A DNA stretch of 64,000 nt from Candidatus Acidiferrum sp. (GTDB taxonomy: Bacteria; Verrucomicrobiota; Verrucomicrobiia; Limisphaerales; UBA8199), in NCBI GenBank assembly GCA_035541055.1, contig DATKNZ010000401.1, forward strand, positions 3,743-67,742, given 5' to 3'. Below, in pieces: positions 14,531 to 64,000 of the stretch. The position numbers and the translations under genes are program-made. Within the stretch, counting starts at the first letter, position 1. The number at the start of each line of letters is the position of its first letter. The notes under the pieces are model-generated. The model saw only the letters and a list, made by a program, of their open reading frames with translations. It was not told the DNA's origin and searched no databases.

Positions 14531-14746
14531 GAACGCCGAAGCCCGAAGACCGAGAGAAGGCCGAAGACCGAAACCCGAAGCAGTCAGCCGGCAGACCAGC
14601 GATGCGGGGCCGTCGGGAGTCTCCACGATAGCGAGACAGGTTAAGGCACAGTGTTCTCCAACGCTTCGGCTGGCCATGTGGACGGTGGCGGCTCCGGGCT
14701 TCGGACTTCGGGCCTCGGTCTTCGGGTTTCCCCCGACCTTCGGACT
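14531..14746. repeat. CCGAAGG-heptamer inverted-repeat element, copy A
   Basis: The left arm (14531-14580) is made of degenerate CCGAAG(G/C/A) heptamers. The right arm (14693-14746) is the complementary CTTCGG array. It shares 'AACCCGAAGCAGTCAGCC' with copy B. It fills the spacer between the ATP-grasp and alpha-E genes. Confidence 0.85.
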
Positions 14747-19411: not shown

Positions 19412-19607
19412 AAATCCGAACGCCGAAGCCCAAAGTCCGCAAGAAGGCCGAAGGCCAAAACCCGAAGCAGTCAGCCCGCTGACATCCATTGTGAGGCGCT
19501 CGGGGATTAACTTCTTAGTGGGACAGCCTGGCTGCAGCTTTCCTCAACGCCTCGCCCTGGCACAGGCGGGAGCGACTTCGTCCTTCGGGGTTCGGCCTTC
19601 GGATCTC
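19412..19607. repeat. CCGAAGG-heptamer inverted-repeat element, copy B
   Basis: Left arm 19412-19467 (AATCCGAACGCCGAAGCCCAAAG...GAAGGCCGAAGGCCAAAACCCGAAGCAGTCAGCC). Right arm 19574-19607 (CTTCGTCCTTCGGGGTTCGGCCTTCGGAT). Confidence 0.8.
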
Positions 19608-33415: not shown

Positions 33416-34501
33416 GTGCCCTCACGCGGCGCACGGAGCGCGCACGCTTTGCCACTCCTCGCGCTGGCTTCCGCCCTGCTGCTCTCGGGCTGCGGCAAAT
33501 TCCACCGCCAGGGCCTCGAGGCCGCCCGGCTGCAACAGGCCGAGCACGACTATGCAGGCCGGACCCTGCGCCTTTCTCCGGAACTGGAGGACAAGATCCT
33601 GGCCCTGAACCCCGCCCAAGTCACCACGCAAGACGTGCGGGAGGTGCTCTCGCACGCCCCGGCGCCGCGGATCATCAGCATTCATGGCGGCGTGGCGCGG
33701 GTCATTCCGCACATGATCTCGTTTGCGGACCTGCTCATTGGCCTGGGCTATCCGGCCGGCAGCCTCACCAATCCCAATGATGGCACCTACAGCTTTAGCT
33801 GCTATGAGAGCAGCGAGCGCATCGCGGGCATGGTCGCCTGGTTTTACGAGAAAGAGGGTCTGCGGCCCATGCTGATCGGGCACAGCCAGGGCGGCATGCA
33901 GGTGGTGAAGGTGCTGGACAAGCTCGCCCGCAACCCCGATCACCCGCTGCATGTATGGAGTCCGCTGACCTGGAAACCCGAGGAGCGCACCGAGATTGTG
34001 GACCCGGTGACCGGCCAGCGCCGGCCGGTAGTGGGCCTGACGCTTCCCTACGCCTCGTCGGTTGGCGCCGGGGGAGCCACCCGCATTCTGCCGAACCAGT
34101 GGGATATGAGCTTCCGCCTGCACACGATTCCCAACACGGTGGAGGAATTCACAGGCTACTGCAAAGGCTGGGACTTCACAGGCGGCGACTTGCTGGGCTA
34201 CGGCTCGATCAACCTTTACCGCGCCAGCGGCACGGCGGTGGTCCGCAACGTCTGGCTGCCGTCCGCCTACCGGCACGGCTACGTGCCCGAGACGAAACAC
34301 CTGCTGGCGGACCCGCGCCTGGTGGATTGGATCAACAATTACCGCCCGAGCCCGGCGGCGGTGTCCCGCCCAACGTTCGATCTCAAAGTTGATTCGAATA
34401 CCAGGAACATCATCTGGGCGGCGGATGTGTGGTACAGCATCAAGAAGCATTGGGTGCTGGAACTGCAGCGCCTCATACGGGCGCAGCGCGCGGGCAGATG
34501 A
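33416..34501 (+). CDS. Lipoprotein alpha/beta-hydrolase (lipase/esterase-type)
   Basis: An in-frame GTG at 33416 gives a signal peptide with the lipobox 'LLALASALLLSGC'. Nucleophile elbow 'MLIGHSQGGMQVV'. The track ORF start (33128) overlaps the previous gene and is unlikely. Confidence 0.65.
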   Translation: MPSRGARSAHALPLLALASALLLSGCGKFHRQGLEAARLQQAEHDYAGRTLRLSPELEDKILALNPAQVTTQDVREVLSHAPAPRIISIHGGVARVIPHMISFADLLIGLGYPAGSLTNPNDGTYSFSCYESSERIAGMVAWFYEKEGLRPMLIGHSQGGMQVVKVLDKLARNPDHPLHVWSPLTWKPEERTEIVDPVTGQRRPVVGLTLPYASSVGAGGATRILPNQWDMSFRLHTIPNTVEEFTGYCKGWDFTGGDLLGYGSINLYRASGTAVVRNVWLPSAYRHGYVPETKHLLADPRLVDWINNYRPSPAAVSRPTFDLKVDSNTRNIIWAADVWYSIKKHWVLELQRLIRAQRAGR

Positions 34502-35154
34502 CACTCGGGCTCAACAGGGCGGTCGTATTCGGCTCGGGCGCGGTCTATTGGGCGGGCGTTGTCGTGCAGGCGCGCCGCGTGCGCCGGCATACTGGCAAGT
34601 CCACCAACACGCGTCCACGCAACACGAAAGAGCGCCTGCTATGGGCGGGATGGTTCTGCGTCGTGGTGTGCTGGCTGGCCCTGCCCTTCCTTAGCATGGT
34701 GAAGCCCGCTTTGCCCGGCGTCGCGGTGCTCGCGAACCTGGCGCAACCCGTCGGGCTGGCGGTCGGGACCCTCCTCATGGTCGCCGGTTACCTGGGCACG
34801 CTCTGGTGCTATGCCGCTATGGGCAACGCCTGGCGGATGGGAATCAACCGGGCCGAGACACCTGACCTCGTGACGCGCGGCCCCTATCGCCTGGTGCGTC
34901 ACCCGATCTACTTCTTCCAGGTCCTCATGGTTGCGGCCATTGCGTTGCTGCTGCCTTCACTGCTGGCCTGTGTCGTTCTCGTCGTCCATCTCGTCTGCGT
35001 GCGCGTTAAGGCGGCAGACGAGGAGAGCCATCTGCGGGCCCTTCTCGGAAAGACCTACGAGAGCTATTGCGCGCAGACCGGGGCCTGGCTTCCCCGGCTG
35101 CGGCGCCATGCGCCTCCGGAGGCGCTTCCCTCACCTGAGCATTCCCTCAAATGA
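34498..35154 (+). CDS. ICMT/PEMT-type integral-membrane methyltransferase
   Basis: It is a multi-transmembrane protein with 'TRGPYRLVRHPIYFFQVLMVAAIALL', the signature region of isoprenylcysteine carboxyl / phospholipid methyltransferase-like families. ATG 34498 overlaps the upstream stop (ATGA). Confidence 0.7.
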   Translation: MTLGLNRAVVFGSGAVYWAGVVVQARRVRRHTGKSTNTRPRNTKERLLWAGWFCVVVCWLALPFLSMVKPALPGVAVLANLAQPVGLAVGTLLMVAGYLGTLWCYAAMGNAWRMGINRAETPDLVTRGPYRLVRHPIYFFQVLMVAAIALLLPSLLACVVLVVHLVCVRVKAADEESHLRALLGKTYESYCAQTGAWLPRLRRHAPPEALPSPEHSLK

Positions 35155-38043: not shown

Positions 38044-38270
38044 AAATCCGAAGGCCCAAACCCGAAGGCCGAAAGAAGGCCGAAGGCCGAAGCCCGAAGG
38101 CCCCGGTGTCATTGCCATGGTGAGCGCCGATCGCTTGGGAGTGCAGTGTTCACGCAGCCTGGCCCTGGGGTCAGTTTCCGCCCGTACCAAGTGCGCGGGT
38201 AGCCGCCCAGCGGGTTCGGGCTTCGGATTTCGGCCTTCTTTCGGGCTTCGGCCTTCGGGCTTCGGATTTC
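38044..38270. repeat. CCGAAGG-heptamer inverted-repeat element, copy C (inside the lipid operon)
   Basis: Left arm 38044-38102 (AATCCGAAGGCCCAAACCCGAAGGCCGAAAGAAGGCCGAAGGCCGAAGCCCGAAGG). Right arm 38212-38270 (GGTTCGGGCTTCGGATTTCGGCCTTCTTTCGGGCTTCGGCCTTCGGGCTTCGGATT). Confidence 0.9.
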
Positions 38271-38313: not shown

Positions 38314-39612
38314 GTGAGCGCGCGTCGCAGGGTTGGCATCACCGGCATCGGCATGGTCACGCCGGTAGGCGGAGATGCGCCGACAACCTGGTCGAGCCTC
38401 CTGGCCGGGCATAGCGGCATTGCGCCCATTGGCCAGTTCGATGCCGGCGGGTTCCCCGTGCGGATTGGGGCCGAGGTCAAACACGTGCCCGACGATCCGG
38501 AGCTGTGCGACCCCAAGCTGCGCAAGTTCACGTCCCGCTCGCACCGGTTTGCCCTGGCTGCCGCCCGGGAGGCGCTTGCCGACGCGGGCATCGGCCCCAC
38601 TCCGGCCACCAGCCACCGGTGGGGCCTGAGCGTCGGCGCCGGCATGCTGGGCGTCACGTTTGACGAATTGCAGACCGTCCACTCCTTCTGCGCGCGCGAT
38701 GGCGAGTTCCATGCGGACGGCTTGTTGGACCCCGGCTTCCCTGCCGACCCGGTGGCGTTCTGCCGTGGGCAGACCAACGCCGGCCTGGGCTTGCTGGCAC
38801 GGCAATTCGGCATCACCGGCTATGCGACTTCCGTTCACACCGCCTGCGCTTCGGGAGGGCAAGCCGTCGGCACTGCCCTCAAGGTGATGCGTCGCGGGGC
38901 GGCGGACTTCATGCTCGCGGGCGGCTACGATTCCATGCTGCACCCGATTGGCTTGTCGGGCTTTTGTCTGCTCGGCGCGCTGTCCACGGACAACGAGACA
39001 CCGGAACGGGCGAGCCGCCCGTTTGACCTCACCCGAAACGGTTTCGTGTTGGGCGAAGGCGCCGGGTTCCTGGTGTTGGAGGAATGGCAGGCCGCGCGGG
39101 CCCGCGGCGCGCGCATTTATGCCGAACTGGCCGGCGAAGGCAACTCCCTAAGCAGCTACCGCATAACGGATTCACACCCTTCGGGCGATGGACCGATCCA
39201 GGCCATGCAGCAGGCGCTGGCTGATGCCGGCCTGACGCCCGAGTCGGTGGATTACGTCAACGCGCACGGCACCTCGACCGCGATGAACGACCGCAGTGAA
39301 TGTGCCGCCCTCCGCGCGGTCATGGGGGCACACGCCGGAAAGGTGGCGGTCAGCTCGACCAAGGGCTGCATGGGCCACCTGATTTCGGCGGCGGGCGCCG
39401 TCGAGGCGGGCATTTGCGCGCTGGCCATCCGCAACAGCGTGGCCCCTGTGAACGCCAACCTGGTCCAGGTTGACCCGGAGTGCAATTTGAACATCGTGCG
39501 GTGCGAATCGCGACCGGTGCGCATTGGCGTGGCCATATCGAACTGCTTCGGCTTCGGCGGCTCGAACAACTGCCTGGTGTTCCGGAGCCCGGATGGGGCC
39601 CGAGGGACCTGA
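38314..39612 (+). CDS. Beta-ketoacyl-ACP synthase (FabF/KAS II-like), copy 1
   Basis: GTG start preceded by GGAGGG. Cys-His-His triad contexts 'VHTACASGGQAVG', 'VNAHGTSTAMND' and 'KGCMGHLISAAGAVE'. Confidence 0.9.
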   Translation: MSARRRVGITGIGMVTPVGGDAPTTWSSLLAGHSGIAPIGQFDAGGFPVRIGAEVKHVPDDPELCDPKLRKFTSRSHRFALAAAREALADAGIGPTPATSHRWGLSVGAGMLGVTFDELQTVHSFCARDGEFHADGLLDPGFPADPVAFCRGQTNAGLGLLARQFGITGYATSVHTACASGGQAVGTALKVMRRGAADFMLAGGYDSMLHPIGLSGFCLLGALSTDNETPERASRPFDLTRNGFVLGEGAGFLVLEEWQAARARGARIYAELAGEGNSLSSYRITDSHPSGDGPIQAMQQALADAGLTPESVDYVNAHGTSTAMNDRSECAALRAVMGAHAGKVAVSSTKGCMGHLISAAGAVEAGICALAIRNSVAPVNANLVQVDPECNLNIVRCESRPVRIGVAISNCFGFGGSNNCLVFRSPDGARGT

Positions 39613-39629: not shown

Positions 39630-39789
39630 CAAACCACAGATGGACACAGATAGACACAGATTCGAAAGGCCGGAATCGGATGCTCGTGAGGCGGTGTCGC
39701 CTTCAGCGGGCAGCGGGCTGGGCCCGATCCTAGCCGCGCCAGGATTGAGCGCCCTGCATCTGTGTTCATCTGTGTCCATCTGTGGTTTT
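39630..39789. repeat. AAACCACAGATGGACACAGAT terminal-inverted-repeat element (~160 bp)
   Basis: CAAACCACAGATGGACACAGATAGACACAGATT (39630-39662) pairs with GCATCTGTGTTCATCTGTGTCCATCTGTGGTTTT (39756-39789). It is translated on both strands in the track as '...ICVHLWF...' and '...HRWTQMNTD...'. Confidence 0.9.
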
Positions 39790-39829
39790 CGTCCGCATGG
39801 ATTGGGTTAACCCGCCTCCACTCGCCTTC

Positions 39830-41110
39830 ATGGAACCCACACCGCGCATCGCCATCACCGGGCTGGGAGCGGTCTGCGGTGCCGGGCTGGGCGTCGAGGC
39901 CATTTGGAACCGCGTCCTGAGCGGCAAGTCGGCCGTGGCCCCGATCACGCAATGGGATGCCAGCCGCTGGCCGGTGAAGCAGGCCGCCGAGATCACGGGA
40001 ATCTCCAACAGCACGCTCTTGCCGGACCGCAAGTACCACAAGTTCCTCTCGCGGACCGACCTGTTCGGACTGTATGCCGCGGACGCCGCGATCCAGCGGT
40101 CGGGCCTGCTCGCGTATCGTGATGGCTTGGAGCCGGATGCGACAGCGGCCTTCAACGACCGCAGCGCGGTCTACGTCGGCTCGGGTGGTTGCGCCTACTA
40201 TTACAACTATGACTTTTTCCCGGCCTACTCTGCCGCCGGGGGCGATCTCAGGGCCTTTGGGCGCGAGTTCGAGTCATGCGTGAACCCGATGTGGCTGCTG
40301 ACCCGCCTGCCCAACAATGTCCTTTGCTACATCGGCATCCGCTATTCGTTCAAGGGGACCAACGCCTGCATCACTAACCAGTGCGTGGGCGGGTCGGTGG
40401 CCCTTGCCGAGGCCGCGGCGGCTATCCGCGTTGGCGATGCCGACCGCGCCGTCGCTACGGGGCACGACGCCGCCATCGAGCCGGAGACAGTGCTCCGCTA
40501 CCACCAGCTCGGGCTGCTGTCGCAGAACGGGCTGCGGCCGTTTGATCGCGCGCGCAGCGGCACGGTCTTCGGCGAAGGCGCCGCCAGCCTTGTGCTCGAG
40601 CGCGAGGCGGACGCACGGGCGCGGCGGGCGCAGTTGATCGGCGAGTTCCTGGGTTCCGGCTGCACCACGGAAGCGAGCGGCATTACCTCGGTGCGCCCGG
40701 ACGGCGACGGGCTGAGCCGGGCGATTGGACTCGCGCTGGCCGACGCCGGCGTTTCACCCGGCCAGGTGGGCCTCGTCGTGGCGCACGGGAATGGGACCCT
40801 GACGTCCGATGCCTCGGAGGCCGTCGCCATCCGGCGCGTGTTTGGAGATTCGCCTCCGCCGATCACCGCTTTCAAGTGGGCGGTGGGCCATACGATCGCT
40901 GCTTCCGGCGTGCTCGATGTAGCTCTCGCCCTCACCGCACTGAGACAGGGGATTGTGCCTGGCATCGCCACGTTGGAATGCCTGGACCCCCAGCTCGCGC
41001 CGCTGCCGGTTTCGGCGGCGCCGCAACCGCCGCGCAGCGACATCGCCCTGGTGCTGAGCCGCGGCTTCGCGGGCATGAATGTGGCGCTGCTGGTCCGGGC
41101 CGTGCGATGA
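39830..41110 (+). CDS. Beta-ketoacyl-ACP synthase-like, copy 2 (divergent partner KS)
   Basis: 'RIAITGLGAVCGAG', 'ITNQCVGGSVALAEA' (Cys retained in an atypical context), 'VVAHGNGTLTSD' and 'KWAVGHTIAASGVLD'. I chose the start at ATG 39830. The track start 39782 lies inside the repeat element. Confidence 0.8.
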   Translation: MEPTPRIAITGLGAVCGAGLGVEAIWNRVLSGKSAVAPITQWDASRWPVKQAAEITGISNSTLLPDRKYHKFLSRTDLFGLYAADAAIQRSGLLAYRDGLEPDATAAFNDRSAVYVGSGGCAYYYNYDFFPAYSAAGGDLRAFGREFESCVNPMWLLTRLPNNVLCYIGIRYSFKGTNACITNQCVGGSVALAEAAAAIRVGDADRAVATGHDAAIEPETVLRYHQLGLLSQNGLRPFDRARSGTVFGEGAASLVLEREADARARRAQLIGEFLGSGCTTEASGITSVRPDGDGLSRAIGLALADAGVSPGQVGLVVAHGNGTLTSDASEAVAIRRVFGDSPPPITAFKWAVGHTIAASGVLDVALALTALRQGIVPGIATLECLDPQLAPLPVSAAPQPPRSDIALVLSRGFAGMNVALLVRAVR

Positions 41111-53357: not shown

Positions 53358-56162
53358 ATGAGAACAAAACTGACCTGGCTCCTGGCCTGCCTTCTGCCCG
53401 GAGCACCTCTAATGGCTGCCGACATCGAGGCGACGGTCTATCCTGGCCAGCCCACCACCAGCACCGCCAACGTATCCATCCCGTCGCTGCCGCCGGCGGC
53501 GGACGTGCTGTTCTCTTTCGACTGCACGGCCAGCATGGATACGGTTTTAGACACAACGAAGGCCAATGCCGTGAGCCTCATGGGCCAACTCGAAGGCACC
53601 GGCGTGAGCTTCCATTTTGCCGTGGCCTCGTTCATGGATTATCCGGGCACCTATACTTCGTGCGGCTACTCGTCCACCTACGGCGACGCCTCGAGCGGCG
53701 ACTACCCTTATAAGCTCAACCAGGCAATGACCACCAACATGAGCGCCGTCACCACGGCCGTCAGCGGCTTGAAGATCGGCTATGGCGTGGATTCGCCCGA
53801 GGCCTACACCCGCCAAATGTACGAGAGTTACGCCGATACCAACGTCCTGTGGCGTACCGGCGCCAAGCGGGTCATGGTGATCTTCGGGGACGATGTGCCG
53901 CACGACTGCAACCTCAACCGCGGGATACCGGGCACGGGCACCAATGTCTGGTCCACCGGCGGCGACCCGGGCCGCGACGGAATCATGGGCACCAGCGACG
54001 ACCTCGACCTGCAAGCCGTCCTGTCGGGCATGGTTTCGAACCATGTCGTCATGCTGGCGGCCCGCATTGATAATTACGGGGGCTCCAGCTACGCGTTTAA
54101 CTACTGGACCGCCTGGACGCGAGAGACGGGCGGCAAAGCGTTCCAGAGCTCCGGCACCACGTTGATCAATGATCTCATGCACGCAATCACCAACAGCCTG
54201 ACGATCATGTGCGTCCAGAATCTGCAAGTGCTGGTCACCCCGACCAACTTCAGCTCGTGGCTGACAGCCAACCCGCCCGTCTATGCCCAGGCCTGCTCCG
54301 GAGACACGCCGGCCTTCCACCTCGCCTTCACACCGCCCCCCGGCACACCCGGGGGCGATTACTCATTCAGCATCTCGGTGCAGGATAACCAGGGCGTGCA
54401 ATACCTGTCCGAATCAGTACTGCTTCATGTCATTCCACCGGTGCCCCTGCCCGTGGCGCTCAACAACGCAACCCTGACCTGGATGACGGCATCGAATATT
54501 CCCTGGTTCGGGCAAACGAACGTGTCGCACGACGGCGTGTCTGCCGGGCGCAGTTGTTTCGTTGGCGACGGCGGGCAGACCAGCATGAGCACCACCACCA
54601 ACGGCCCGGGCACGCTATCCTTCTGGTGGGAAGTGTCCTCTCAAACCAATGCCGACCTGCTGAGCTTCATCTGCTACGGCGGCGGCACGACCAGCATCAC
54701 GGCGCAAATCTCGGGCGAAGTGGGTTGGCAGCAGTTCAGCGCCTACCTGCCCGGCGGCCCGCAGACGCTGGTCTGGACGTATAGCAAAGACGCCTCCCAA
54801 AGCGCCGGGCTCGATGCCGGCTTCGTGGACCAGGTCAGCTACGCCTTCGGCCCGACGCTGCCCTTCATCATTGCCGACCCACAGAGCCAGCAGGTCTCGG
54901 CCACCACGCCGGTGACCTTCTCGGTCCTGGCCAACGGCACGCCCACCTTGGCCTACCAGTGGCGCGTGAACGGCAAAGATATTCTCGGGGCCACCTCGAA
55001 CGTGCTCGCCTTGCCCAGCGCGACCTGGCTCGATGCCGGCACCTACGCCGTGCGCGTCTCGAATCCTTACGGCGTCACCAACAGCGCGAACGCGGCCCTG
55101 AGCATTCTACCGATCATGCTGCGCGGGGACGACTCGATGGGGCAGATCCAGCCGTCTCTCCTGGAGACCAACCCGGCGGCCATTGCGGCCGGCTCGTATC
55201 ATACGCTCGCCCTGCTCCAGGACGGCACGGTCGCCGCCTGGGGCGAAGATGACGATGGGCAATGCGATCCCCCGCCGGGCCTCACGAACGTAGTGCAGGT
55301 TGCCGGCGGCGGCTATCACAGCCTGGCCTTGAGCGCCGACGGATCGGTTACCGCCTGGGGCGGCAATGAAGATCAGCAATGCAACGTCCCAGCCGGCCTG
55401 ACCAACGTGCTGGCCGTGGCCGCCGGCTTTTGGCACAGCCTGGCATTGCGCGCGGATGGCACGGTCGTCGCCTGGGGCGATAACAGCTACGGGCAGACCT
55501 CTATACCGGCCGGCCTCAATAATGTGGTGGCAATCGCGGCCGGCGGGAACCACAGCCTCGCCCTGCGCGCGGACGGCACCGTCGCAGCCTGGGGCGATAA
55601 CCTGGATGCCTACGGCAGCTACGTAGGGCAATCAGCGGTGCCGGCCGGCCTGAACGGCGTGCAAGGCATCGGCGCCGGCGAATACCACAGCCTCGCGGTC
55701 CGTACTAACGGCGCGGTGGCCGCCTGGGGCGACGATTCCCAGGGCCAATGCGACCTTCCCCCCAACCTGACCAACGCCGTAGCCGTGACCGGGGGAGGCG
55801 GACACAGCCTGGCCATTAAAGCCGATAGCTCGATGGCGGCCTGGGGCGCCAACTGGAACGGGCAGTGCAACCTCCCGACCAACCTGCTAGGCGTGGCCTG
55901 CGTCGCGGCCGGCGACATGCACAGCGTAGTGCTCTTTGGCCTCACGCCGCCCAAGCTGATCCGCACCCGGCGCGGCCACGGGCAATTCACCCTGATGCTG
56001 CCGACCTACGCCGGAATGAACTACGCGCTCGAATACGAGACCGCTTTGCAGTCCGGCGTCTGGACCCCCAGCGCCTCCGCTTTCGGCCACGGCGGCCTGC
56101 AGATGCTGACCGACCTCACCGCGACCAACTCCGCCCGCTATTACCGCGTGCGGGTGTGGTAG
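53358..56162 (+). CDS. Secreted vWA-like / Ig-like / RCC1-repeat (beta-propeller) protein
   Basis: Signal peptide 'LTWLLACLLPGAPLMAA'. vWA-like 'DVLFSFDCTASMD...VMVIFGDDVPHD'. Ig-like 'AYQWRVNGKDI...DAGTYAVRVSNPYG'. At least seven RCC1 blades follow the pattern 'G.YHSLAL.ADG.V.AWG.N..GQ...P.GL.NV'. The protein ends 'RYYRVRVW'. Confidence 0.85.
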   Translation: MRTKLTWLLACLLPGAPLMAADIEATVYPGQPTTSTANVSIPSLPPAADVLFSFDCTASMDTVLDTTKANAVSLMGQLEGTGVSFHFAVASFMDYPGTYTSCGYSSTYGDASSGDYPYKLNQAMTTNMSAVTTAVSGLKIGYGVDSPEAYTRQMYESYADTNVLWRTGAKRVMVIFGDDVPHDCNLNRGIPGTGTNVWSTGGDPGRDGIMGTSDDLDLQAVLSGMVSNHVVMLAARIDNYGGSSYAFNYWTAWTRETGGKAFQSSGTTLINDLMHAITNSLTIMCVQNLQVLVTPTNFSSWLTANPPVYAQACSGDTPAFHLAFTPPPGTPGGDYSFSISVQDNQGVQYLSESVLLHVIPPVPLPVALNNATLTWMTASNIPWFGQTNVSHDGVSAGRSCFVGDGGQTSMSTTTNGPGTLSFWWEVSSQTNADLLSFICYGGGTTSITAQISGEVGWQQFSAYLPGGPQTLVWTYSKDASQSAGLDAGFVDQVSYAFGPTLPFIIADPQSQQVSATTPVTFSVLANGTPTLAYQWRVNGKDILGATSNVLALPSATWLDAGTYAVRVSNPYGVTNSANAALSILPIMLRGDDSMGQIQPSLLETNPAAIAAGSYHTLALLQDGTVAAWGEDDDGQCDPPPGLTNVVQVAGGGYHSLALSADGSVTAWGGNEDQQCNVPAGLTNVLAVAAGFWHSLALRADGTVVAWGDNSYGQTSIPAGLNNVVAIAAGGNHSLALRADGTVAAWGDNLDAYGSYVGQSAVPAGLNGVQGIGAGEYHSLAVRTNGAVAAWGDDSQGQCDLPPNLTNAVAVTGGGGHSLAIKADSSMAAWGANWNGQCNLPTNLLGVACVAAGDMHSVVLFGLTPPKLIRTRRGHGQFTLMLPTYAGMNYALEYETALQSGVWTPSASAFGHGGLQMLTDLTATNSARYYRVRVW

Positions 56163-56254: not shown

Positions 56255-56387
56255 CCAAATCCGAAGGCCGAAGGCCGAAGCCCGAAAGAAGGCCGAACTA
56301 CGCAATCCGAGGGCGCCAGTGTGGTGCGTTCGAGCCTCGGATTTCGGCCTTCCTTCGGCCTTCGGATTTCGGCCTTCGGATTTGGGC
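56255..56387. repeat. CCGAAGG-heptamer inverted-repeat element, copy D
   Basis: CCCAAATCCGAAGGCCGAAGGCCGAAGCCCGAAAGAAGGCCGAA (56255-56298) pairs with CCTCGGATTTCGGCCTTCCTTCGGCCTTCGGATTTCGGCCTTCGGATTTGGG (56335-56387). Confidence 0.9.
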
Positions 56388-56455: not shown

Positions 56456-58981
56456 ATGGACCGCACCAACAAGGCGCGCGATGCTCTCCGGGTAGGCCTG
56501 CTCCTGGCTGCGCTCACGCTGGTGGCCTACTGGCCCATGTGGCAGAACGGCTTCGTCAGCTATGACGACCGGAGCTACGTGACCGAAAACCCGCACGTCC
56601 TGGGCGGACTCAGCCTCAACAGCATTAAATGGGCCCTCACGACCGGGCACGCCGGGAACTGGCACCCGCTCACCTGGCTCTCGCATATCCTGGACGCCCA
56701 AATCTACGGGCTGTGGGCCGCAGGGCACCATGCGACCAACCTGCTCCTGCATATCGCCAACACCCTGCTGCTCTTCGCCTGGCTGCGGCGGGTGACTGGC
56801 GCGCTTTGGCGCAGCGCCCTTGTGGCGGCGCTCTTCGCCGTCCACCCGCTGCACGTGGAATCGGTCGCCTGGGTGGCCGAGCGCAAGGACGTGCTGAGCA
56901 TGTTCTTCTTCATGCTCACACTGTGGACCTACACGCGATGGGTGGAGGAAGGAGAACATCCAACATCCAACACCGCAGTGCGTGGTGCGTGTTCCGTGTC
57001 CACGCAACACGCAACACGCAACACGTTCCACGCTCCGCGCTTCGCGCTCTACGTCCTTTCCCTGCTCTCCTTCGCCCTGGGTCTCATGAGCAAGCCCATG
57101 CTGGTGACCGTGCCCTTCGTCCTCGTGCTCCTGGACTACTGGCCACTCGGCCGCTTCGCAGGTCTTGAGTCTAAAGTCTCAAGTCTCGAGTCCAAGGAAG
57201 ACTTAGCACGCAACACGCAATACGCACCACGTTTCAGCCTTGAGCCTCTAGCCCTTAGCCTTTGGGACAAACTGCCCTTCTTCGCCCTCAGCCTGGCTTC
57301 CAGCGCCGCCACCTTCCTTATTCAGCGCAACGCCGGCGCGGTGAGTTCACTCGACACGCTGCCGCTGGAGTTCCGAATTTCCAACGCGTTCGTCTCCTGC
57401 CTGCGCTATGCCGCCAAGCTGTTTTGGCCCGTGCGGCTGGCGGCTTTCTACCCTGCCCCAAGCCATTGGCCGGATGCCTGGGTCGCTGGTGCCATTGTGT
57501 TCCTGGTAGGCGTAACCGCGCTGGTCGTCTGGCGGGCACCCCGGGCGCCATACCTGCCCGTCGGGTGGTTCTGGTACCTGGGCACGCTGGTGCCGGTCAT
57601 TGGCATCGTCCAGGTCGGCCAGCAATCCATGGCCGACCGCTACAGCTACATCCCGCTCATCGGGCTGTTCATCATGCTCGTCTGGGGCGCAGCGGCCGTC
57701 TGCTCGCGGTGGCCGGCGGCGAGAGGCGCACTGGCAGCTTGTGGGGTGGCCGCGGTCTGCGCCTGCGCCGTGCTGACCTGGCGACAGGTCGAGTATTGGC
57801 ATGACAGCGCCAGCCTTTTTCAACACGCCCTCGCGGTTACGGAGGACAATGCCGTCGCCCAGAACAACCTCGGCGCGTGCTCCTTGGACGCCGGAAACCT
57901 CGCCGAAGCCGAAGCGCACTTCGCCGAGGCGGTGCGCATCCATCCCAATTACCCCGAAGCGCTGGCCAACCTGGGCCTCTGCCGCCAGCAGGCGGGACAG
58001 GAGCAAGAAGCGATAGACCTGCTGCTAAAGTCGGTCCGCGTCCAGAGCAGTCCCGCGGTCGAATACAACCTGGGCGAACTGCTCTCCCGGCGTGGTGAAC
58101 TGGCGCCGGCCGAGTCGCACTACCGCACCGCCCTGAAGGAAAACCCCGAGTTCGCCGAGGCGTGGTGCGGCCTCGGCCAACTCAAAGCCAGGCAAGGCCA
58201 GGTGGCCGAGGCAGTGCAGTGCTATACCACTGCGCTACGATTTAAGCCGGGCCTGGTCGCCGCCCACGAGGCCCTCGGAGGCATGTTGGAGGCGCAGAAG
58301 AAACTCGACCAAGCCATCCCGCATTTCGAGGCCGCCGTGCGGTCCGCTCCCACGGATCCCAATGCCCATTACAACCTCGCCGCTGCGCTGAACGCCAAAG
58401 GCGACTTCGCCGGCGCCGCGGCGCAATACGCCGAGACCTGCCGCTTGCGACCCGACGACCTCGAAGCGCGCCGCAACCTCGCGCTGGCCCTGCTCGGACA
58501 AGGCAAGCTGGCTGAAGCAGCCTCACAGCTAGAGCAGGTCCTGCGCGTCCGGCCCGACGCTGCGACCGAGCACTACCTGGCGCTCGCCCTCGACTCTCAG
58601 GGGCAAACCGCCGCCGCGCTGCCGCATTACCGCGAAGCAGTGCGCCTGGCGCCGGACACCGCCCTCTACCTGAATGACCTGGCGTGGATCCTCGCGACCA
58701 GTCCCCAGGCCGAGCTGCGCAACGGCGCAGAGGCGGTGCAATTGGCGGAGACGGCCTGCAAGCTAAGCGGCGGCAAGGAGGCGCGCTGCTACGGTACACT
58801 GGACGCCGCTTATGCGGAGGTGGGCCGCTTCGACGACGCCGTGGCTACCGCCACCAAAGCCCGCGACCTCGCCCTCGCCGCCGGGCAGAAGGAGTTGGCC
58901 GGCGCAGCCGAGGCTCGGCTCGCGCTTTACCAACAGCGCAAGCCCTTCCGCCAGCCCGTTGTGACCGCCCCGCCGCCTTGA
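56456..58981 (+). CDS. TMTC/PMT/ArnT-like GT-C membrane glycosyltransferase fused to a C-terminal TPR array, paralogue 1
   Basis: First-loop acidic motif 'GFVSYDDRSYVTENPHV'. 'NWHPLTWLSH' and 'HPLHVESVAWVAERKDVLS' (DUF1736/TMTC-like). Multiple transmembrane helices are followed by about 10 TPR units ('AEAHFAEAVRIHPNYPEALANLG...'). Confidence 0.8.
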   Translation: MDRTNKARDALRVGLLLAALTLVAYWPMWQNGFVSYDDRSYVTENPHVLGGLSLNSIKWALTTGHAGNWHPLTWLSHILDAQIYGLWAAGHHATNLLLHIANTLLLFAWLRRVTGALWRSALVAALFAVHPLHVESVAWVAERKDVLSMFFFMLTLWTYTRWVEEGEHPTSNTAVRGACSVSTQHATRNTFHAPRFALYVLSLLSFALGLMSKPMLVTVPFVLVLLDYWPLGRFAGLESKVSSLESKEDLARNTQYAPRFSLEPLALSLWDKLPFFALSLASSAATFLIQRNAGAVSSLDTLPLEFRISNAFVSCLRYAAKLFWPVRLAAFYPAPSHWPDAWVAGAIVFLVGVTALVVWRAPRAPYLPVGWFWYLGTLVPVIGIVQVGQQSMADRYSYIPLIGLFIMLVWGAAAVCSRWPAARGALAACGVAAVCACAVLTWRQVEYWHDSASLFQHALAVTEDNAVAQNNLGACSLDAGNLAEAEAHFAEAVRIHPNYPEALANLGLCRQQAGQEQEAIDLLLKSVRVQSSPAVEYNLGELLSRRGELAPAESHYRTALKENPEFAEAWCGLGQLKARQGQVAEAVQCYTTALRFKPGLVAAHEALGGMLEAQKKLDQAIPHFEAAVRSAPTDPNAHYNLAAALNAKGDFAGAAAQYAETCRLRPDDLEARRNLALALLGQGKLAEAASQLEQVLRVRPDAATEHYLALALDSQGQTAAALPHYREAVRLAPDTALYLNDLAWILATSPQAELRNGAEAVQLAETACKLSGGKEARCYGTLDAAYAEVGRFDDAVATATKARDLALAAGQKELAGAAEARLALYQQRKPFRQPVVTAPPP

Positions 58982-59031: not shown

Positions 59032-61581
59032 ATGCCGGAACGACGGAAGTGGGAACCCGCCGCAGTTTGCTATTGCCTGCTGGCGTTGATCACGCTCGCC
59101 GTGTATCTGCCGGTCCTCGAGGCGCGCTTCGTCACCTTCGACGACACCTACTACGTCACGGACAATCAGCACGTGCAGGCCGGCCTGACCTGGGAAGGCA
59201 CGCGCTGGGCGTTCACGCATTACCATGCGGCGAACTGGCATCCGGTGACCTGGCTCTCGCACATGCTGGACTGCCAGCTTTACGGCTTGAATCCGCTGGG
59301 CCCTCACCTGACCAACCTCCTGTTCCACACGGCGAACACGTTGCTGCTGTTCGGGTTGCTCCGCTACCTGACCGGCGCGTTCTGGCGCAGCGCATTCGTG
59401 GCGGCGCTCTTCGCCCTGCACCCGCTGCACGTCGAGTCGGTCGCCTGGGTCGCCGAGCGCAAAGACGTGCTGAGCACGTTCTTCTTCCTGCTCACGCTAT
59501 GGACCTACGTCCGCTACGCGGAAGCCCGAACGCCGAAGGTCGAAGGCCGAATTGGGAAACATCCAACAGCCAACATCCAACATCCAACATCCAGTGATCA
59601 GCCCCAGGCAGGTTCCACACGCCACGCTCCTCGCTTCTACCTTCTGTCCTTGCTCTTCTTTGCCCTGGGCCTCATGAGCAAGCCCATGCTGGTGACCGTG
59701 CCGTTCGTGTTGCTGCTCCTGGACTACTGGCCGGTGCGGCGGTTCGCCGGTCTCGAGTCTCAAGTCTCAAATCTCAAGCCCACGCAACTCGCAACACGCA
59801 CCACGCCTCAGGCCCACGGCTGGCGCCAAGCTCGTAAATCCCAGATCGTAAATCGTATATTGCTGGACAAGCTCCCCTTCCTCGCGCTCTCTGCCGCGTC
59901 CTGCATCGTGACCGTCATCGCGCAGCACAAGGGCGGCGCCCTGGCCTCGCTCGAAGGCGGGAGCGCCGTAAGCATAGCCTGCCGCATCGTCAACACCCCC
60001 GTCGCGTACGCATCCTACCTGGCGAAGCTGCTGTGGCCGGCGGACCTGGCAGTCATCTACCCATTCGTCCGGGAATGGCCGGCGGACATCGTTGTGCTGG
60101 CGACCGCGGTCGTCGTTGCCCTTACTGGCGCTGCCGTGTGGCTGGGGCTTCGCCGGCGGCCCTACCTGCTTGTGGGCTGGCTCTGGTACTTGGGCACTCT
60201 GGTGCCGGTCATCGGCCTCGTGAAGGTGGGCGCCCAATCCATCGCCGACCGCTACATGTATATCCCTTCAATCGGCCTGTTTGTTATGCTGGCATGGGGC
60301 GTGGCCGACCTGACCGCGGGATGGGCGCAACGCACGGTTCCGCTGGCCCTGGCCGCGGCGGCAGTCCTGGCCGCATGCGGCATAGTCACCGGCGCCCAAC
60401 TGCTCTACTGGCAAAACACCGAGACGCTGTTCCGCCACGCGCTGGCCGTAACCAAAGACAATTATATGGCCTGCAACAATCTCGGCTACTACTTCGCCGA
60501 ACTGGGCGAGCACGAGCAGGCGAAGACCTGCTACCGCCAGGCAATACAAATTGCCCCGACCTATCCCGCCCCGCGCAGCAACCTGGGGGCGACCCTCATA
60601 CATCAGCAGAAGTACAGCGAAGCCGTCGCCGCGCTGGAGGAGGCGCTGGCCCTGAACCCCGCGTCGGCCGACATCGAGAGCAACCTGGGCGGCGCCCTGT
60701 ATTGCGAGGGCAAAACCGCCGACGCCATTACGCATCTGCGCCGGGCCATCCAGCTCAATCCCGAATACGCCATGGCTCGCTACAACCTGGGCAACGCCTT
60801 GCTGCAACAGGACAAACCGACCGAGGCAGCGGCGGCGTTCCGCCAGGCGACGAAGCTCGATCCGCGTTACGCCGACGCGTATAGCAACCTTGGGCTCATT
60901 CTGGCCAAGGAAGGCAAGTCGGCTGAAGCGGAGGCCCAGTTCCGGCACGCACTGAACCTGCAGCCGGGCCTGGCGCCGGCGCTTTACAGCCTCGGACAAA
61001 CGCTCCTGGAGCAAGGAAAAGCTGACGAGGCCGCGGCGCAGTTCACCGAGTTGCTCCGGCTGCATCCCCGGCATCAGCCGGCCTGGATGCAACTCGGCCT
61101 CGCCCGCGTTAAGCAGGGTAACCCGGACGAAGCAGCGGCCGCCTTCTCCTCGGCGCTGCGGATCAGTCCTGACGACCTCGAAGCCCACTGCCAACTAGGC
61201 GCCGTCCTCGCGAGCCAACACCGATCGCGTGAGGCGGTCCAGCATTACCGCGAAGCGCTCAAGCTGGCGCCCGACTCACCCGAAATCCTTAACAACCTGG
61301 CTTGGATTCTCGCCGCCGGTCCCAACGCCCAGGTCCGCAATGGCAAGGACGCGGTCGCCCTGGCTGAGCGCGCCTGCAAACTGACCGATTACAAGCGCCC
61401 GGTCATGGTGGGCACCTTGGCGGCGGCTTATGCCGAAGCGGGACGCTTCCAGGATGCAGTGGCCACGGCGGAAAAAGCGGGAGCACTGGCCGAGCAGTCC
61501 AACCAACCCGCCCTGGCCGCCCGGAACCGCGAGCTGGCGGCGCTCTATCGCTCCGGGCAGCCTGCCCGGGACACGCAATGA
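59032..61581 (+). CDS. TMTC-like GT-C glycosyltransferase + TPR, paralogue 2
   Basis: 'RFVTFDDTYYVTDNQHV', 'NWHPVTWLSH' and 'HPLHVESVAWVAERKDVLS', then a TPR array. I chose the start at ATG 59032 (MPERRKWEPAAV...). The track ORF start 58684 would overlap paralogue 1. Confidence 0.8.
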   Translation: MPERRKWEPAAVCYCLLALITLAVYLPVLEARFVTFDDTYYVTDNQHVQAGLTWEGTRWAFTHYHAANWHPVTWLSHMLDCQLYGLNPLGPHLTNLLFHTANTLLLFGLLRYLTGAFWRSAFVAALFALHPLHVESVAWVAERKDVLSTFFFLLTLWTYVRYAEARTPKVEGRIGKHPTANIQHPTSSDQPQAGSTRHAPRFYLLSLLFFALGLMSKPMLVTVPFVLLLLDYWPVRRFAGLESQVSNLKPTQLATRTTPQAHGWRQARKSQIVNRILLDKLPFLALSAASCIVTVIAQHKGGALASLEGGSAVSIACRIVNTPVAYASYLAKLLWPADLAVIYPFVREWPADIVVLATAVVVALTGAAVWLGLRRRPYLLVGWLWYLGTLVPVIGLVKVGAQSIADRYMYIPSIGLFVMLAWGVADLTAGWAQRTVPLALAAAAVLAACGIVTGAQLLYWQNTETLFRHALAVTKDNYMACNNLGYYFAELGEHEQAKTCYRQAIQIAPTYPAPRSNLGATLIHQQKYSEAVAALEEALALNPASADIESNLGGALYCEGKTADAITHLRRAIQLNPEYAMARYNLGNALLQQDKPTEAAAAFRQATKLDPRYADAYSNLGLILAKEGKSAEAEAQFRHALNLQPGLAPALYSLGQTLLEQGKADEAAAQFTELLRLHPRHQPAWMQLGLARVKQGNPDEAAAAFSSALRISPDDLEAHCQLGAVLASQHRSREAVQHYREALKLAPDSPEILNNLAWILAAGPNAQVRNGKDAVALAERACKLTDYKRPVMVGTLAAAYAEAGRFQDAVATAEKAGALAEQSNQPALAARNRELAALYRSGQPARDTQ

Positions 61582-64000
61582 TAGATACGGCCCAACCCCA
61601 GGCACTGCCGCCAGTGACGGGCAAGAGCACGCCCAAGGCGCCGACGCTTGTCGTCTGCCTGCTGCTCGCCCTCGCCACTGCCGCCGTCTATTGGCCGGTA
61701 AGCAGGATGGGATTCATCAACTTCGACGACCCGGACTACGTGAGCGGCAACCCGCGAGTGCAGGCCGGCCTCACCGCCGAAACCGTCCGCTGGGCCTTCA
61801 CGAGCGGTTATGCCAGCAACTGGCATCCCGTGACCTGGCTCTCCCACCTGCTCGATTGCCAGCTTTATCACCTCAAGCCGGCAGGACATCACGTTACCAA
61901 CCTCTTGTTCCACGTGGTCAACACGCTGCTGCTGTTCGGCCTGCTGAGACGCCTGACCGGCGCGTTCTGGCGCTGCGCCCTGGTCGCGGCGCTCTTTGCC
62001 TTGCACCCCCTGCACGTGGAATCGGTTGCCTGGATATCCGAGCGCAAGGACGTGCTCAGCGCGTTCTTCTTCATGCTTACGCTCTGGGCCTACACCTGCT
62101 ACGCAGAAGCCCGAAGGCCCAGCGTCGAAGACCGAATTGGGGAACATCCAACATCCAACATCCAACATCCAACATCCAATGCTCAGCCTCCGGCACCCAC
62201 CACGCACCACGCTCCACGCTTCTACCTCCTCTCCTTGCTCTGCTTCGCCCTGGGCCTCATGAGCAAGCCCATGCTGGTGACCGTGCCCTTCGTGCTTATG
62301 CTGTTGGACTACTGGCCGCTGCGGCGCTTCGCCAGTCTTGAGTCCAAACTCCCAAGTCTCAAGTCCACGCCAGACGCAACACGCTCCACGCAACACGCTC
62401 CACGTTTCACCCTTCAGCCCCTAGCGGTCAGCCTCCTCGAAAAGCTCCCCTTCTTCGCCCTGTGCGCCGCCTCTTGCGTCGTCACTTTCCTCGTGCAGCG
62501 TGCTTCCGGCGCCGTGACCCCGCTGGACAAAGGGCCGCTCGAATCGCGCGTGGCTAACGCGCTGTTGGCGTATGTGCGTTACCTGGGCAAGACGCTCTGG
62601 CCATCGAAGCTCGCCGTCTTCTATCCCAACTTCCAGGTCAGCTTCGACGACTGGCAGGTCGTGGCAGCAGGCCTATTGCTGATCGCCATCACCGCCGGCG
62701 TGTGGCTTCTGCGCAGGCGCCAGCCGTGGCTGCTCGTAGGCTGGTTCTGGTTCGCCGGTATGCTGGTGCCGGTGATCGGGCTGGTGCAGGTGGGCAAGCA
62801 ATCCATGGCTGACCGTTACACCTACCTGCCCCATATTGGCCTGTTCGTAGCTCTGGTCTGGGGCGGCGCGGCGCTTCTCGGGCGGTTGCCGCGCCCCCGC
62901 CTGGTGGCTGCTCCCGTGGCCGCCTGCGCCCTGGCGGCCTGCATGCTGCTCACGGCGCGGCAGCTTTCGCACTGGGCAAACACCCTCACGTTGTTCCAGC
63001 ACGCGGCGGCGGTCACCTCGCAGAACTTTGTGGCCTACACTGTCGTGGGCAACGACTTCGCCGAGCACCGCAAATTCGCCGAGGCCGTCGCCGAGTGCGA
63101 GAAGGCGTTGCGCATTTCACCGGATTACCCCGAGGCGCACAACACCCTGGGCAACGTCTATGCCCAGGAGGAGAAATATGACGACGCCATCGCGCAGTAT
63201 CGCCGGGCGGAGGAGGACGCTTCGTATGCCGACCCACGTAACGGCATGGCCAACGTGCTCATCAAGCAGCAGAAGTATGCTGAAGCTGAAACCCAGGCGC
63301 GCGACGCCTTGCGCCTGGCGCCCATGCATCTTCCCGCGATGTTCTCCCTCGCCATCGCCCTCCACAGCCAGGGCAAGCCGGCCGAGGCCGCCGAAGTCTA
63401 TCGGCGCATGATCGCCCTGAATCCCTCAATTTCCACCCCGCACCGCAACCTGGGCAGAATTCTCGTCGCGCAGGGCAAGCCGGACCAGGGCATTGCCGAG
63501 TTGGCTCTCGCCGCCCGGCTCGATCCAAAGGATGGGGAAACCCGCACGCTTCTGGGCATGACCCTCATGAGTCAAAACCGGCCCAACGACGCCTTTCCAC
63601 ACCTGTCCGAAGCCGCCCGGCTGCAACCGACGAATGCGCTTGCCCAATACAACCTGGGCCTCATTTACCAATCACGGAAGCAGGCGCCCGAGGCTGTGCA
63701 GCACCTGCGCCTCGCGCTGAAGGCGCAGCCGGATTGGCCTGAGACGCTGAACAACCTTGCCTGGCTGCTGGCCGCCAACCCCGACCCTGCGGTGCGCAAC
63801 GGCCCCGAGGCCGTCTCGCTCGCCGAGCGCGCCTGCAAGCTCACCGGCTACCAGGAACCGCTGCTCGTTGGCACCCTGGCCGCCGCTTACGCCGAGGCCG
63901 GCCGCTTCTCCCAAGCCATAACCACCGCTGAGCAGGCCCGCACGCTGGCGCTCGCCGCGGGGCAAACCGCCATCGCGCAGAAGAACGAGGAACTGCTCGC
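61578..64000 (+). CDS. TMTC-like GT-C glycosyltransferase + TPR, paralogue 3 (3' end beyond the window)
   Basis: Hand translation from ATG 61578 (ATGA overlap with the paralogue 2 stop) gives MIDTAQPQALPPV...GFINFDDPDYVSGNPRV...HPLHVESVAWISERKDVLS...TPR units. The frame stays open to position 64000. It is not in the ORF track because no stop lies in the window. Confidence 0.8.
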   Translation, partial: MIDTAQPQALPPVTGKSTPKAPTLVVCLLLALATAAVYWPVSRMGFINFDDPDYVSGNPRVQAGLTAETVRWAFTSGYASNWHPVTWLSHLLDCQLYHLKPAGHHVTNLLFHVVNTLLLFGLLRRLTGAFWRCALVAALFALHPLHVESVAWISERKDVLSAFFFMLTLWAYTCYAEARRPSVEDRIGEHPTSNIQHPTSNAQPPAPTTHHAPRFYLLSLLCFALGLMSKPMLVTVPFVLMLLDYWPLRRFASLESKLPSLKSTPDATRSTQHAPRFTLQPLAVSLLEKLPFFALCAASCVVTFLVQRASGAVTPLDKGPLESRVANALLAYVRYLGKTLWPSKLAVFYPNFQVSFDDWQVVAAGLLLIAITAGVWLLRRRQPWLLVGWFWFAGMLVPVIGLVQVGKQSMADRYTYLPHIGLFVALVWGGAALLGRLPRPRLVAAPVAACALAACMLLTARQLSHWANTLTLFQHAAAVTSQNFVAYTVVGNDFAEHRKFAEAVAECEKALRISPDYPEAHNTLGNVYAQEEKYDDAIAQYRRAEEDASYADPRNGMANVLIKQQKYAEAETQARDALRLAPMHLPAMFSLAIALHSQGKPAEAAEVYRRMIALNPSISTPHRNLGRILVAQGKPDQGIAELALAARLDPKDGETRTLLGMTLMSQNRPNDAFPHLSEAARLQPTNALAQYNLGLIYQSRKQAPEAVQHLRLALKAQPDWPETLNNLAWLLAANPDPAVRNGPEAVSLAERACKLTGYQEPLLVGTLAAAYAEAGRFSQAITTAEQARTLALAAGQTAIAQKNEELL

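Follow-up and report, generated by a model that had tools for sequence, protein, structure and literature searches.

The 64,000-nucleotide window analysed here (GenBank assembly GCA_035541055.1, contig DATKNZ010000401.1, positions 3,743 to 67,742 of the forward strand) carries at its 3' end three tandem genes for large membrane proteins, in each of which short arrays of heptanucleotide repeats are read in frame at two equivalent sites. With a probability of roughly 0.6, these arrays are slippage-driven microsatellite linkers that are filtered for stop-free, hydrophilic peptides and that only rarely knock out a gene by frameshift. Because arrays of this kind also occur in intergenic hairpins and in housekeeping enzymes, a mutational habit combined with tolerance would be primary, rather than a dedicated switch.

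The three genes lie on the plus strand between positions 56456 and 64000, and ORF (open reading frame) calling and alignment show all of them to be intact. Paralogue 1 (56456-58981) encodes 841 aa and its exact protein is also present on an ENA contig; paralogue 2 (59032-61581) encodes 849 aa from a recognisable start codon; and paralogue 3 (61578-64000), whose start overlaps the stop of paralogue 2 (ATGA), runs past the window end and has a full length of 820 aa in another assembly (L001 10001-12463; L numbers denote contigs and loci, P numbers proteins). Paralogues 2 and 3 share 48% and 50% identity, respectively, with paralogue 1. The product of each gene begins with a multi-pass membrane domain of about 470 aa and continues with C-terminal tetratricopeptide repeats (TPRs), which were assigned by Pfam.

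The arrays were located with Tandem Repeats Finder, and in all three genes they fall in equivalent alignment columns at two sites, as the first-pass annotation of the window had proposed. Module 1 of paralogue 1 (56946-57043), in the predicted loop between transmembrane helices TM4 and TM5, is composed of (AACATCC)2.6 at 56955-56972, an inverted GTGCGTG/CACGCAA hairpin and (CACGCAA)3.6 at 57001-57025, and it ends in HAPRF. Module 2 (57161-57235), in the TM6/TM7 loop, combines (AGTCTCA)4.3, with a GTCTCAA-like array at 57168-57196, and (CACGCAA)3.6 at 57207-57231, and ends in YAPRF. The equivalent modules of paralogue 2 are a CCGAAGG-like array (59516-59551), (AACATCC)5.1 with one mismatch (59558-59593), a CACGCNN tail and a HAPRF end at 59516-59637, and (GTCTCAA)4.1 (59750-59778), (CACGCAA)3.7 (59781-59806) and (TCGTAAA)3.7 at 59748-59865. 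Those of paralogue 3 are a CCGAAGG-like stretch, a perfect (AACATCC)5.3 (62143-62179), (CACGCAC)3.7 and a HAPRF end at 62106-62222, and a degenerate GTCTCAA array with (CACGCAA/CACGCTC)4.7 (62366-62398) and a HAPRF end at 62334-62408. The ending (H/Y)APRF, which had been ascribed to every module, is thus found in five of the six, the exception being module 2 of paralogue 2, which ends in the TCGTAAA array.

In the proteins, these composite and short arrays are internal, at about residues 165-200 and 230-270. They are true tandem repeats read within intact ORFs, as had been claimed: perfect period-7 runs of at least 18 nt number six in the window, whereas 100 simulations under a first-order Markov model gave 0.05 on average and never more than 1, and the self-identity of the loops is 0.53-0.62 at lag 7 compared with 0.26-0.30 at lag 6. 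An assembly artefact is ruled out, since the sequence agrees between three independent assemblies of the locus and the reads and k-mers used far exceed the arrays in length. The contig L003 (ERZ27256505), which comes from an independent assembly and is identical to the window, stops within the AACATCC array of paralogue 2 (window 59586), which could reflect a graph ambiguity at the repeat or a plain drop in coverage.

The host proteins are predicted to have a membrane fold of the glycosyltransferase C (GT-C) type. The AlphaFold2 (AF2) model of residues 1-470 of paralogue 2, built on 85 homologues, has a mean confidence (pLDDT, predicted local distance difference test) of 88.5 and a predicted template modelling score (pTM) of 0.90, and its 25 best fold matches in the PDB, obtained with Foldseek, are all GT-C enzymes (Pmt4, AglB, STT3, ArnT, Pmt1/2, DPY19 and PglB). 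The fold was recognised by this route, as an alignment-based sequence search of the PDB returned TPR proteins only, and Pfam gave for the N-terminal domain no PMT, PMT_2 or DUF1736 match and no family at E <= 1 except a chance match. The earlier description of the genes as TMTC-like therefore holds for the architecture with its C-terminal TPRs and fails for the N-terminal domain, which matches no DUF1736/TMTC profile. Residues D37 and D38, just after TM1, and K217, in the motif MSKP, are invariant in the 85 sequences. The published GT-C topology assigns an acidic motif to the first external loop and a basic residue to the third (PMC6801728), and D37/D38 and K217 fit these positions.

The two modules are the sole low-confidence internal stretches of the model (pLDDT 53-66), with values of 56-57 over residues 171-190 for module 1 of paralogue 2 and of 53-66 over residues 241-270 for module 2. 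In agreement with the idea that they lie outside the membrane, helices 140-166 and 196-216 flank module 1 in the model and helices 218-232 and 264-300 flank module 2, which puts the modules in the TM4/TM5 and TM6/TM7 loops. Both loops probably face the cytoplasm, because this is the side reached when helices are counted from the external DD loop, and the positive charge of the repeat peptides is consistent with it. A third loop, TM2/TM3 after the motif LRR, also carries heptamer arrays in some homologues, such as L066 (4281-4308) and P0078/P0147, with (AACATCC)4 and CCTCGAA arrays and the insert GQARQKEECRMENGGT.

The N-terminal domain has thousands of homologues. In 120 of them, the loop between the motifs ERKDVLS and GLMSKP is hypervariable and consists of 7-residue periodic peptides, each of which is the three-frame translation of a heptamer: CCGAAGG yields PKAEGRR, AACATCC yields HPTSNIQ, CACGCAA yields TQHATRN, CACGTTT yields HVSRFTF, CACGCAT yields HASRITH, GTCCAAA yields VQSPKSK, GAATGCA yields ECRMQNA and TCCGAAA yields SEIRNPK. 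The ancestral state was assessed with genes from 80 species-representative genomes. Forty-four genes of Desulfobacterota, Planctomycetota and other phyla are without inserts and have a fixed spacing of 32 residues between the two motifs, with a short ERPGxxR turn, whereas every homologue labelled Verrucomicrobiota has 33-84 residues there; relative to the fixed short loop, the verrucomicrobial loops hold 6-52 extra residues. Because the homologues of other phyla keep this fixed short spacing, the inserts are derived. A few arrays are found in other phyla too (L025, L032, L067 and L027).

Related loci totalling 1.5 Mb were scanned for perfect arrays of 2.6 units or more, which gave 324 with a period of 7, 55 with a period of 6 and 14 with a period of 8. 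Loop 1 holds 2.15 arrays per kb and loop 2 holds 1.55, compared with 0.067 per kb elsewhere in the family genes and 0.099 per kb outside these genes. The loops of 244 family genes hold 201 arrays of about 77 heptamer types, with a median of 3.1-3.4 units and a maximum of 5.9. These arrays are filtered by orientation, with the unit outnumbering its complement by 188 to 13. The antisense strand would hold stops in 74 of the 201. Of the other 127, which can be read without a stop in both directions, 94 have the more hydrophilic peptide on the sense strand (p = 6e-8); the mean net charge of the array peptides is +0.8 per 7 aa.

The arrays are not confined to this family. In related contigs, they occur in frame in an RluA-type pseudouridine synthase (L155, L152 and L177), in a Zn-dependent dehydrogenase (Zn-ADH; L112, L152 and L050), in UvrA (L205), in the dihydroorotate dehydrogenase PyrD (L144) and in a PAP2-PMT_2 linker (L162), and the inserts in the housekeeping enzymes are again periodic at 7 aa (e.g., STLNPQP, VQSPKSK and EISNRKS). 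Outside the family genes, 202 kb of verrucomicrobial loci contain 23 arrays at period 7 against 4 at period 6 and none at period 8. A literature search found no description of heptanucleotide repeats in Verrucomicrobia or of loop arrays of this sort.

Copy number changes by whole units between close strains, as had been expected from the repeats. Ten clusters of proteins at 90% identity were compared, and most of their internal indels measure exactly 7 aa and lie in the repeats of loop 1 or loop 2; such 7-aa indels, for example HHAS[RITHHAA]RITHHAS and TVHGPQP[TVHGPQS]TVHGPQS, are present in five of the ten. The contigs L085 and L086, from two JGI (Joint Genome Institute) samples, align over 5,463 bases, and their only differences are two indels. 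Each indel lies in a GTCCACR array that immediately follows the motif LDYWP, in one of two adjacent paralogues. One of them, of 21 nt (three units), gives proteins of 801 and 808 aa, and the other, of 14 nt (two units), splits a 753-aa gene into ORFs of 259 and 370 aa. A full census of contig pairs with at least 95% identity added only a single 1-nt indel to these two. From the L085/L086 indels and the 7-aa indels of the clusters, it follows that whole-unit slippage is real and able to switch a paralogue off. The first-pass annotation had reasoned that differences always in multiples of three units would mark the modules as fixed low-complexity linkers; the 14-nt indel departs from this pattern.

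The reading frame is nevertheless nearly always kept. Among the species-representative genes, 91 of 92 maintain one frame across both modules, and a frame-blind DNA pattern recovered 141 genes, 126 of them testable, of which about 122 are in frame and four break the frame between the two anchors. One of these four breaks lies outside the arrays, and two of the other three are 1-nt indels relative to relatives. The 14-nt L085/L086 difference is the single whole-unit OFF allele found, the remaining breaks being 1-nt indels or unconnected with the arrays, and any switching would presumably be slow. Several candidate slips were rejected: the breaks in L133 and L171 are 1-nt indels in comparison with relatives, those in L140 and L199 are outside the arrays, L032, from a long-read metagenome-assembled genome (MAG), has its frameshift in a lysine-rich loop, and the apparent break in L047 was a regex miss. 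As for the window organism itself, L001 and L002 differ from the window by four single-nucleotide polymorphisms and no indel, and L003 is identical to it; the two assemblies compared in this way overlap the window by 4.6-15 kb. Among the other loci compared, none is closely related to this region at 84% DNA identity or more.

Signs of recombination accompany the arrays in one protein cluster. Two of its members, P0021 and P0126 (cluster 2), are identical from about residue 150 on and quite different before it, and such mosaic proteins suggest that paralogues have recombined. A third member, P0123, is a truncated copy of 219 aa; it ends exactly at a CACGCAT array, next to a NAD synthase gene in convergent orientation. 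This neighbour, directly after the break, led us to reject a simple slip in favour of a rearrangement or a chimera. The arrays may thus also act as recombination points, so that a copy-pasted element stays in view as a minor rival explanation.

Under the favoured explanation, heptanucleotide microsatellites would have colonised two short turns of the GT-C fold, TM4/TM5 and TM6/TM7. Since 7 and 3 have no common factor, an array is read in all three frames and gives a peptide with a 7-residue period, such as NIQHPTS from AACATCC, TQHATRN from CACGCAA or PKAEGRR from CCGAAGG. Only heptamers that are free of stops in the three frames and encode hydrophilic, mildly positive peptides would persist, and the outcome would be a disordered linker that the GT-C fold tolerates. 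Replication slippage would create and alter the arrays in whole units, and selection would hold the length of the loop at a multiple of three bases, so that surviving changes would be mostly of plus or minus three units (7 aa). An occasional out-of-frame change would knock out one member of the large paralogous family. The same process would operate genome-wide in the verrucomicrobial lineage, in intergenic hairpins and in the loops of housekeeping enzymes.

Several observations weigh against this explanation or narrow it. The density of arrays in the loops is at least that of non-coding DNA, so tolerance alone may not be the whole story. The membrane side of the loops is derived from helix counting only, and the ON/OFF sample is made of consensus assemblies, which hide minority variants. 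Two further points concern blocks larger than a repeat unit. On the same contig, just past the window end (L001 12600-15770), lies a fourth, distantly related GT-C/TPR gene. It encodes 1056 aa, matches PMT_2 weakly, has TPRs at the C-terminus and contains (CAACAGC)2.9 and GTGCGTG/(CACGCAA)4.9 in the equivalent loop. Its module and module 1 of paralogue 1 are 82% identical over 79 nt, and DNA similarity between the two genes is otherwise significant only where they encode the C-terminal TPRs (70% over 294 nt). The 40-nt hairpin core of this block is found in these two genes and nowhere else in the 1.5 Mb of related loci, and a shared 79-nt block with a hairpin looks like the transfer of a DNA segment and not like local slippage. 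In addition, GGGG(AACATCC)5AATG has the same length and is near-perfect in paralogues 2 and 3 and in the divergent contigs L200 and L177, while the flanks diverge; conservation of (AACATCC)~5 with AATG suggests constraint, conversion or a function of the sequence, not free drift.

A broader version of the slippage scheme is unlikely as a whole, yet it deserves to be set out. It holds that heptamers are seeded across the lineage, through a peculiarity of replication or repair or through an unrecognised copying process, that the resulting linkers are recruited throughout the proteome, and that the arrays of the GT-C/TPR genes serve as low-rate on/off and length-tuning switches. If this last part were true, a population would contain a shifting repertoire of protein glycosyltransferases.

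Also unlikely is a set of dedicated slipped-strand contingency loci, which would turn the glycosyltransferase paralogues ON and OFF at high frequency and so diversify their glycosylated targets; this was the reading of the first-pass annotation, which saw in the modules the classical architecture of such loci. It was right that the gain or loss of a single unit shifts the frame, a unit of 7 nt not being a multiple of three, and the arrays do lie within the ORFs of a large paralogous glycosyltransferase family, a typical cargo of phase variation. Whole-unit polymorphism is common, the two-unit difference between L085 and L086 splits one paralogue, and a precedent exists in neuO of Escherichia coli K1 (PMC13001214). 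However, the arrays are short, with no more than 5.3 units in the window, a median of about 3 among the 201 loop arrays and none of these reaching 6, and about 97-99% of the genes are in frame, compared with 34% ON for neuO. Two of the three resolvable breaks in array regions are 1-nt indels and not unit slips, the arrays of the window organism are without indels in three assemblies, and the length of (AACATCC)5 is conserved in divergent genes. Finally, the same arrays sit in single-copy housekeeping genes (UvrA, PyrD, the RluA-type synthase and the Zn-dehydrogenase), for which switching is implausible.

The window also contains four related long intergenic hairpins with arms of the CCGAAGG/CCTTCGG type (14531-14730, 19443-19602, 38048-38270 and 56261-56387), each directly 3' of a plus-strand ORF. 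They share the conserved core CCGAAAGAAGGCCGAAGGCCGAA...CTTCGG, and their centres vary up to about 110 nt. The copy upstream of paralogue 1 (56261-56387), delimited by Tandem Repeats Finder and by alignment of the family, has (CCGAAGG)n and (CCTTCGG)n arms and a DNA fold of -56.4 kcal/mol (z = -10.3), and the copy at 38 kb folds at -137 kcal/mol (z = -7.4). Because a search of the whole window with Rfam at gathering thresholds gave no match for hairpins or modules, neither belongs to a described RNA family. The claim that the same heptamers build both hairpins and modules stands for the CCGAAGG type, but in the window the AACATCC and GTCTCAA arrays are confined to the three genes. In the related contig L183 (3028-3100), an imperfect complement comes after an AACATCC array (GGATGGCGTTGGAGGTTGG), so the AACATCC heptamer too can build a hairpin element. 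A different inverted pair, of a 10-nt unit (CACAGATAGA x2.7 and CATCTGTGTC x2.8, with a centre of about 95 nt), lies at 39635-39784 between two fabF-like genes (38314-39612 and 39782-41110).

Such hairpins could be the source of a small mobile or copy-pasted element, comparable to the Rickettsia palindromic elements, that was inserted in frame and whose modules were spread by gene conversion. This would account for the four related hairpins and the CCGAAGG vocabulary that they have in common with module 1 of paralogues 2 and 3, for the AACATCC-armed hairpin of L183, for the identical 42-nt AACATCC block in divergent genes, and for the hairpin-bearing module 1 of paralogue 1, whose match in the fourth gene is surrounded by N-terminal (non-TPR) sequence that otherwise does not align. 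Module 1 of paralogue 1, with its inverted GTGCGTG/CACGCAA pair, indeed folds at -23.3 kcal/mol (z = -3.0). When the coding modules were considered as hairpins, however, only this one and the copy in the fourth gene did better than shuffled sequences; the other five of the six in the window fold no better than these (z of about +0.5 to +0.8). The roughly 77 heptamer types have no common core, changes between close strains are unit-sized gains and losses within arrays and not of whole elements, the 40-nt hairpin core has no further copies in the 1.5 Mb of related loci, and no terminal repeats or target duplications are seen. A mobile element is, in consequence, distinctly improbable as the origin of the modules.

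Very improbable is selection for the 7-residue peptides themselves (HPTSNIQ, or TRNTQHA ending in HAPRF) as cytoplasmic binding, regulatory or spacing motifs, with the DNA periodicity as a mere trace of their origin: GEHPTSNIQHPTSN and the (H/Y)APRF-plus-helix ending are kept in homologues of 52-61% identity, the peptides are strongly biased towards hydrophilic and positive ones, and the order is consistent, a K/E/R-rich array coming first and a CACGNNN-type array adjoining the helix, but homologues of other phyla keep every catalytic motif without the inserts, loop content differs wholly between close homologues with dozens of unrelated peptides at one site, the repeats are perfect in DNA with no synonymous variation between units, the same peptides appear in unrelated enzymes, and the modules are predicted to be disordered.

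Other repeats were noted in and near the window. In the ORF of a small membrane protein (34429-35154), GTCCACGCAACACGC x1.9 at 34599-34626 codes for KSTNTRPRNTKE in a loop adjoining a hydrophobic helix, a weak example of the same heptamer vocabulary in an unrelated gene. The spacer between paralogue 3 and the fourth gene (L001 12528-12572) holds a perfect (GGCTATT)3.9 followed by (ATCCTCA)2.9. Upstream of the three genes, a 117-nt tandem repeat of 2.2 copies with 72% matches (55221-55480), in a gene for a 934-aa protein, corresponds to RCC1-type protein repeats and is unconnected with the heptamers.

With regard to the host, paralogue 3 is identical at 806 of 807 positions to P0019 and, likewise, to P0121 (HVM50147.1), whose source label at NCBI is "Candidatus Acidoferrum sp." (Acidobacteriota). 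The FabF of the window shares 80% identity with a protein of a "Verrucomicrobiota bacterium" and 76% with one of the Chthoniobacterales. Because this enzyme and every named relative of the GT-C genes indicate Verrucomicrobiota, the host is verrucomicrobial and the taxonomic label of the MAG probably wrong.

These arrays are a natural case in which microsatellites with a unit length that is not a multiple of three are kept in coding DNA as the main material of protein loops, among thousands of members of one gene family and also in housekeeping enzymes from the same lineage. They offer a tractable system for the interplay of slippage-prone DNA, reading-frame constraint and filtering at the peptide level. 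For annotators, 7-residue periodic, low-complexity segments in verrucomicrobial proteins are to be read as products of the DNA level, and the arrays provide natural markers of length by which strains from soil and peat metagenomes can be typed. If reversion of the rare frameshift alleles occurred at useful rates, phase variation would extend to free-living soil bacteria and to the machinery of protein O-glycosylation.

Among known systems, the TMTC and PMT O-mannosyltransferases resemble the host proteins in their N-terminal multi-pass GT-C domain, the DD motif of the first external loop, the lysine of the third loop and the C-terminal TPRs. Unlike them, the host genes have no Pfam match to PMT, PMT_2 or DUF1736. 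To our knowledge, eukaryotic TMTC and PMT proteins do not carry microsatellite loops.

In Haemophilus, Neisseria and Helicobacter, contingency tracts are long and near-perfect and mostly have units of 1-5 nt; they are found commonly in both the ON and the OFF frame and are restricted to surface or modification genes. The arrays described here have in common with them the presumed slipped-strand mispairing of units not divisible by three, which leads to frameshifts, and they share the general feature of simple sequence repeat contingency loci that such a unit lies within an ORF. They lack the long near-perfect tract and the common occurrence of both frames, being short, drawn from a vocabulary of about 77 heptamers and present in housekeeping genes too.

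Rickettsia palindromic elements (RPEs) were reportedly described by Ogata and colleagues in 2000 as palindromes of 100-150 bp with a conserved consensus, placed in frame in protein-coding genes. As in RPEs, which have been reviewed (PMC10969869), the repeats are common to intergenic DNA and ORFs and are inserted in frame at permissive surface sites, also in housekeeping proteins. In contrast to RPEs, they are 7-nt arrays of many sequences, mostly non-palindromic within genes, that change by unit slippage. The conserved palindrome of defined length and many copies that characterises RPEs and miniature inverted-repeat transposable elements is thus absent from the coding modules, which have no common core.

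A coding counterpart, and the one well-studied switch that works by an in-frame heptanucleotide, is neuO, the O-acetyltransferase gene of phage CUS-3 in E. coli K1, whose coding sequence contains a variable number tandem repeat (VNTR) of 5'-AAGACTC-3' with 3-53 units; 65.6% of the genomes are OFF (about 34% ON), and switching is measurable in culture (PMC13001214). In both cases, a 7-nt unit read in frame gives a 7-residue repeat, full length is reached only in frame, and the gene encodes a carbohydrate-modifying enzyme (PMC13001214). Unlike the single long tract at the 5' end of neuO, which encodes tandem heptads, tunes activity by its length and defines this type of heptad VNTR, the arrays here are several, short (2-6 units), mixed and partly degenerate, and sit in internal loops of a membrane domain; moreover, over 97% of the family genes are ON, and three assemblies of the window organism are alike.

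Heptamers have also been described in intergenic DNA, namely the cyanobacterial short tandemly repeated repetitive (STRR) sequences, GGGAATC in Xanthomonas and GGGGA(C/T)T in Nostoc (PMC4692102), and TAACTGA in Beggiatoaceae (PMC4679880), and all of these are reported as intergenic and under-represented in coding regions (PMC4692102; PMC4679880). The arrays of the present lineage resemble them in their lineage-specific excess, in forming some inverted pairs or hairpins and in differing in length between close relatives. They depart from them in location, since their densest sites are the coding loops of a membrane protein family.

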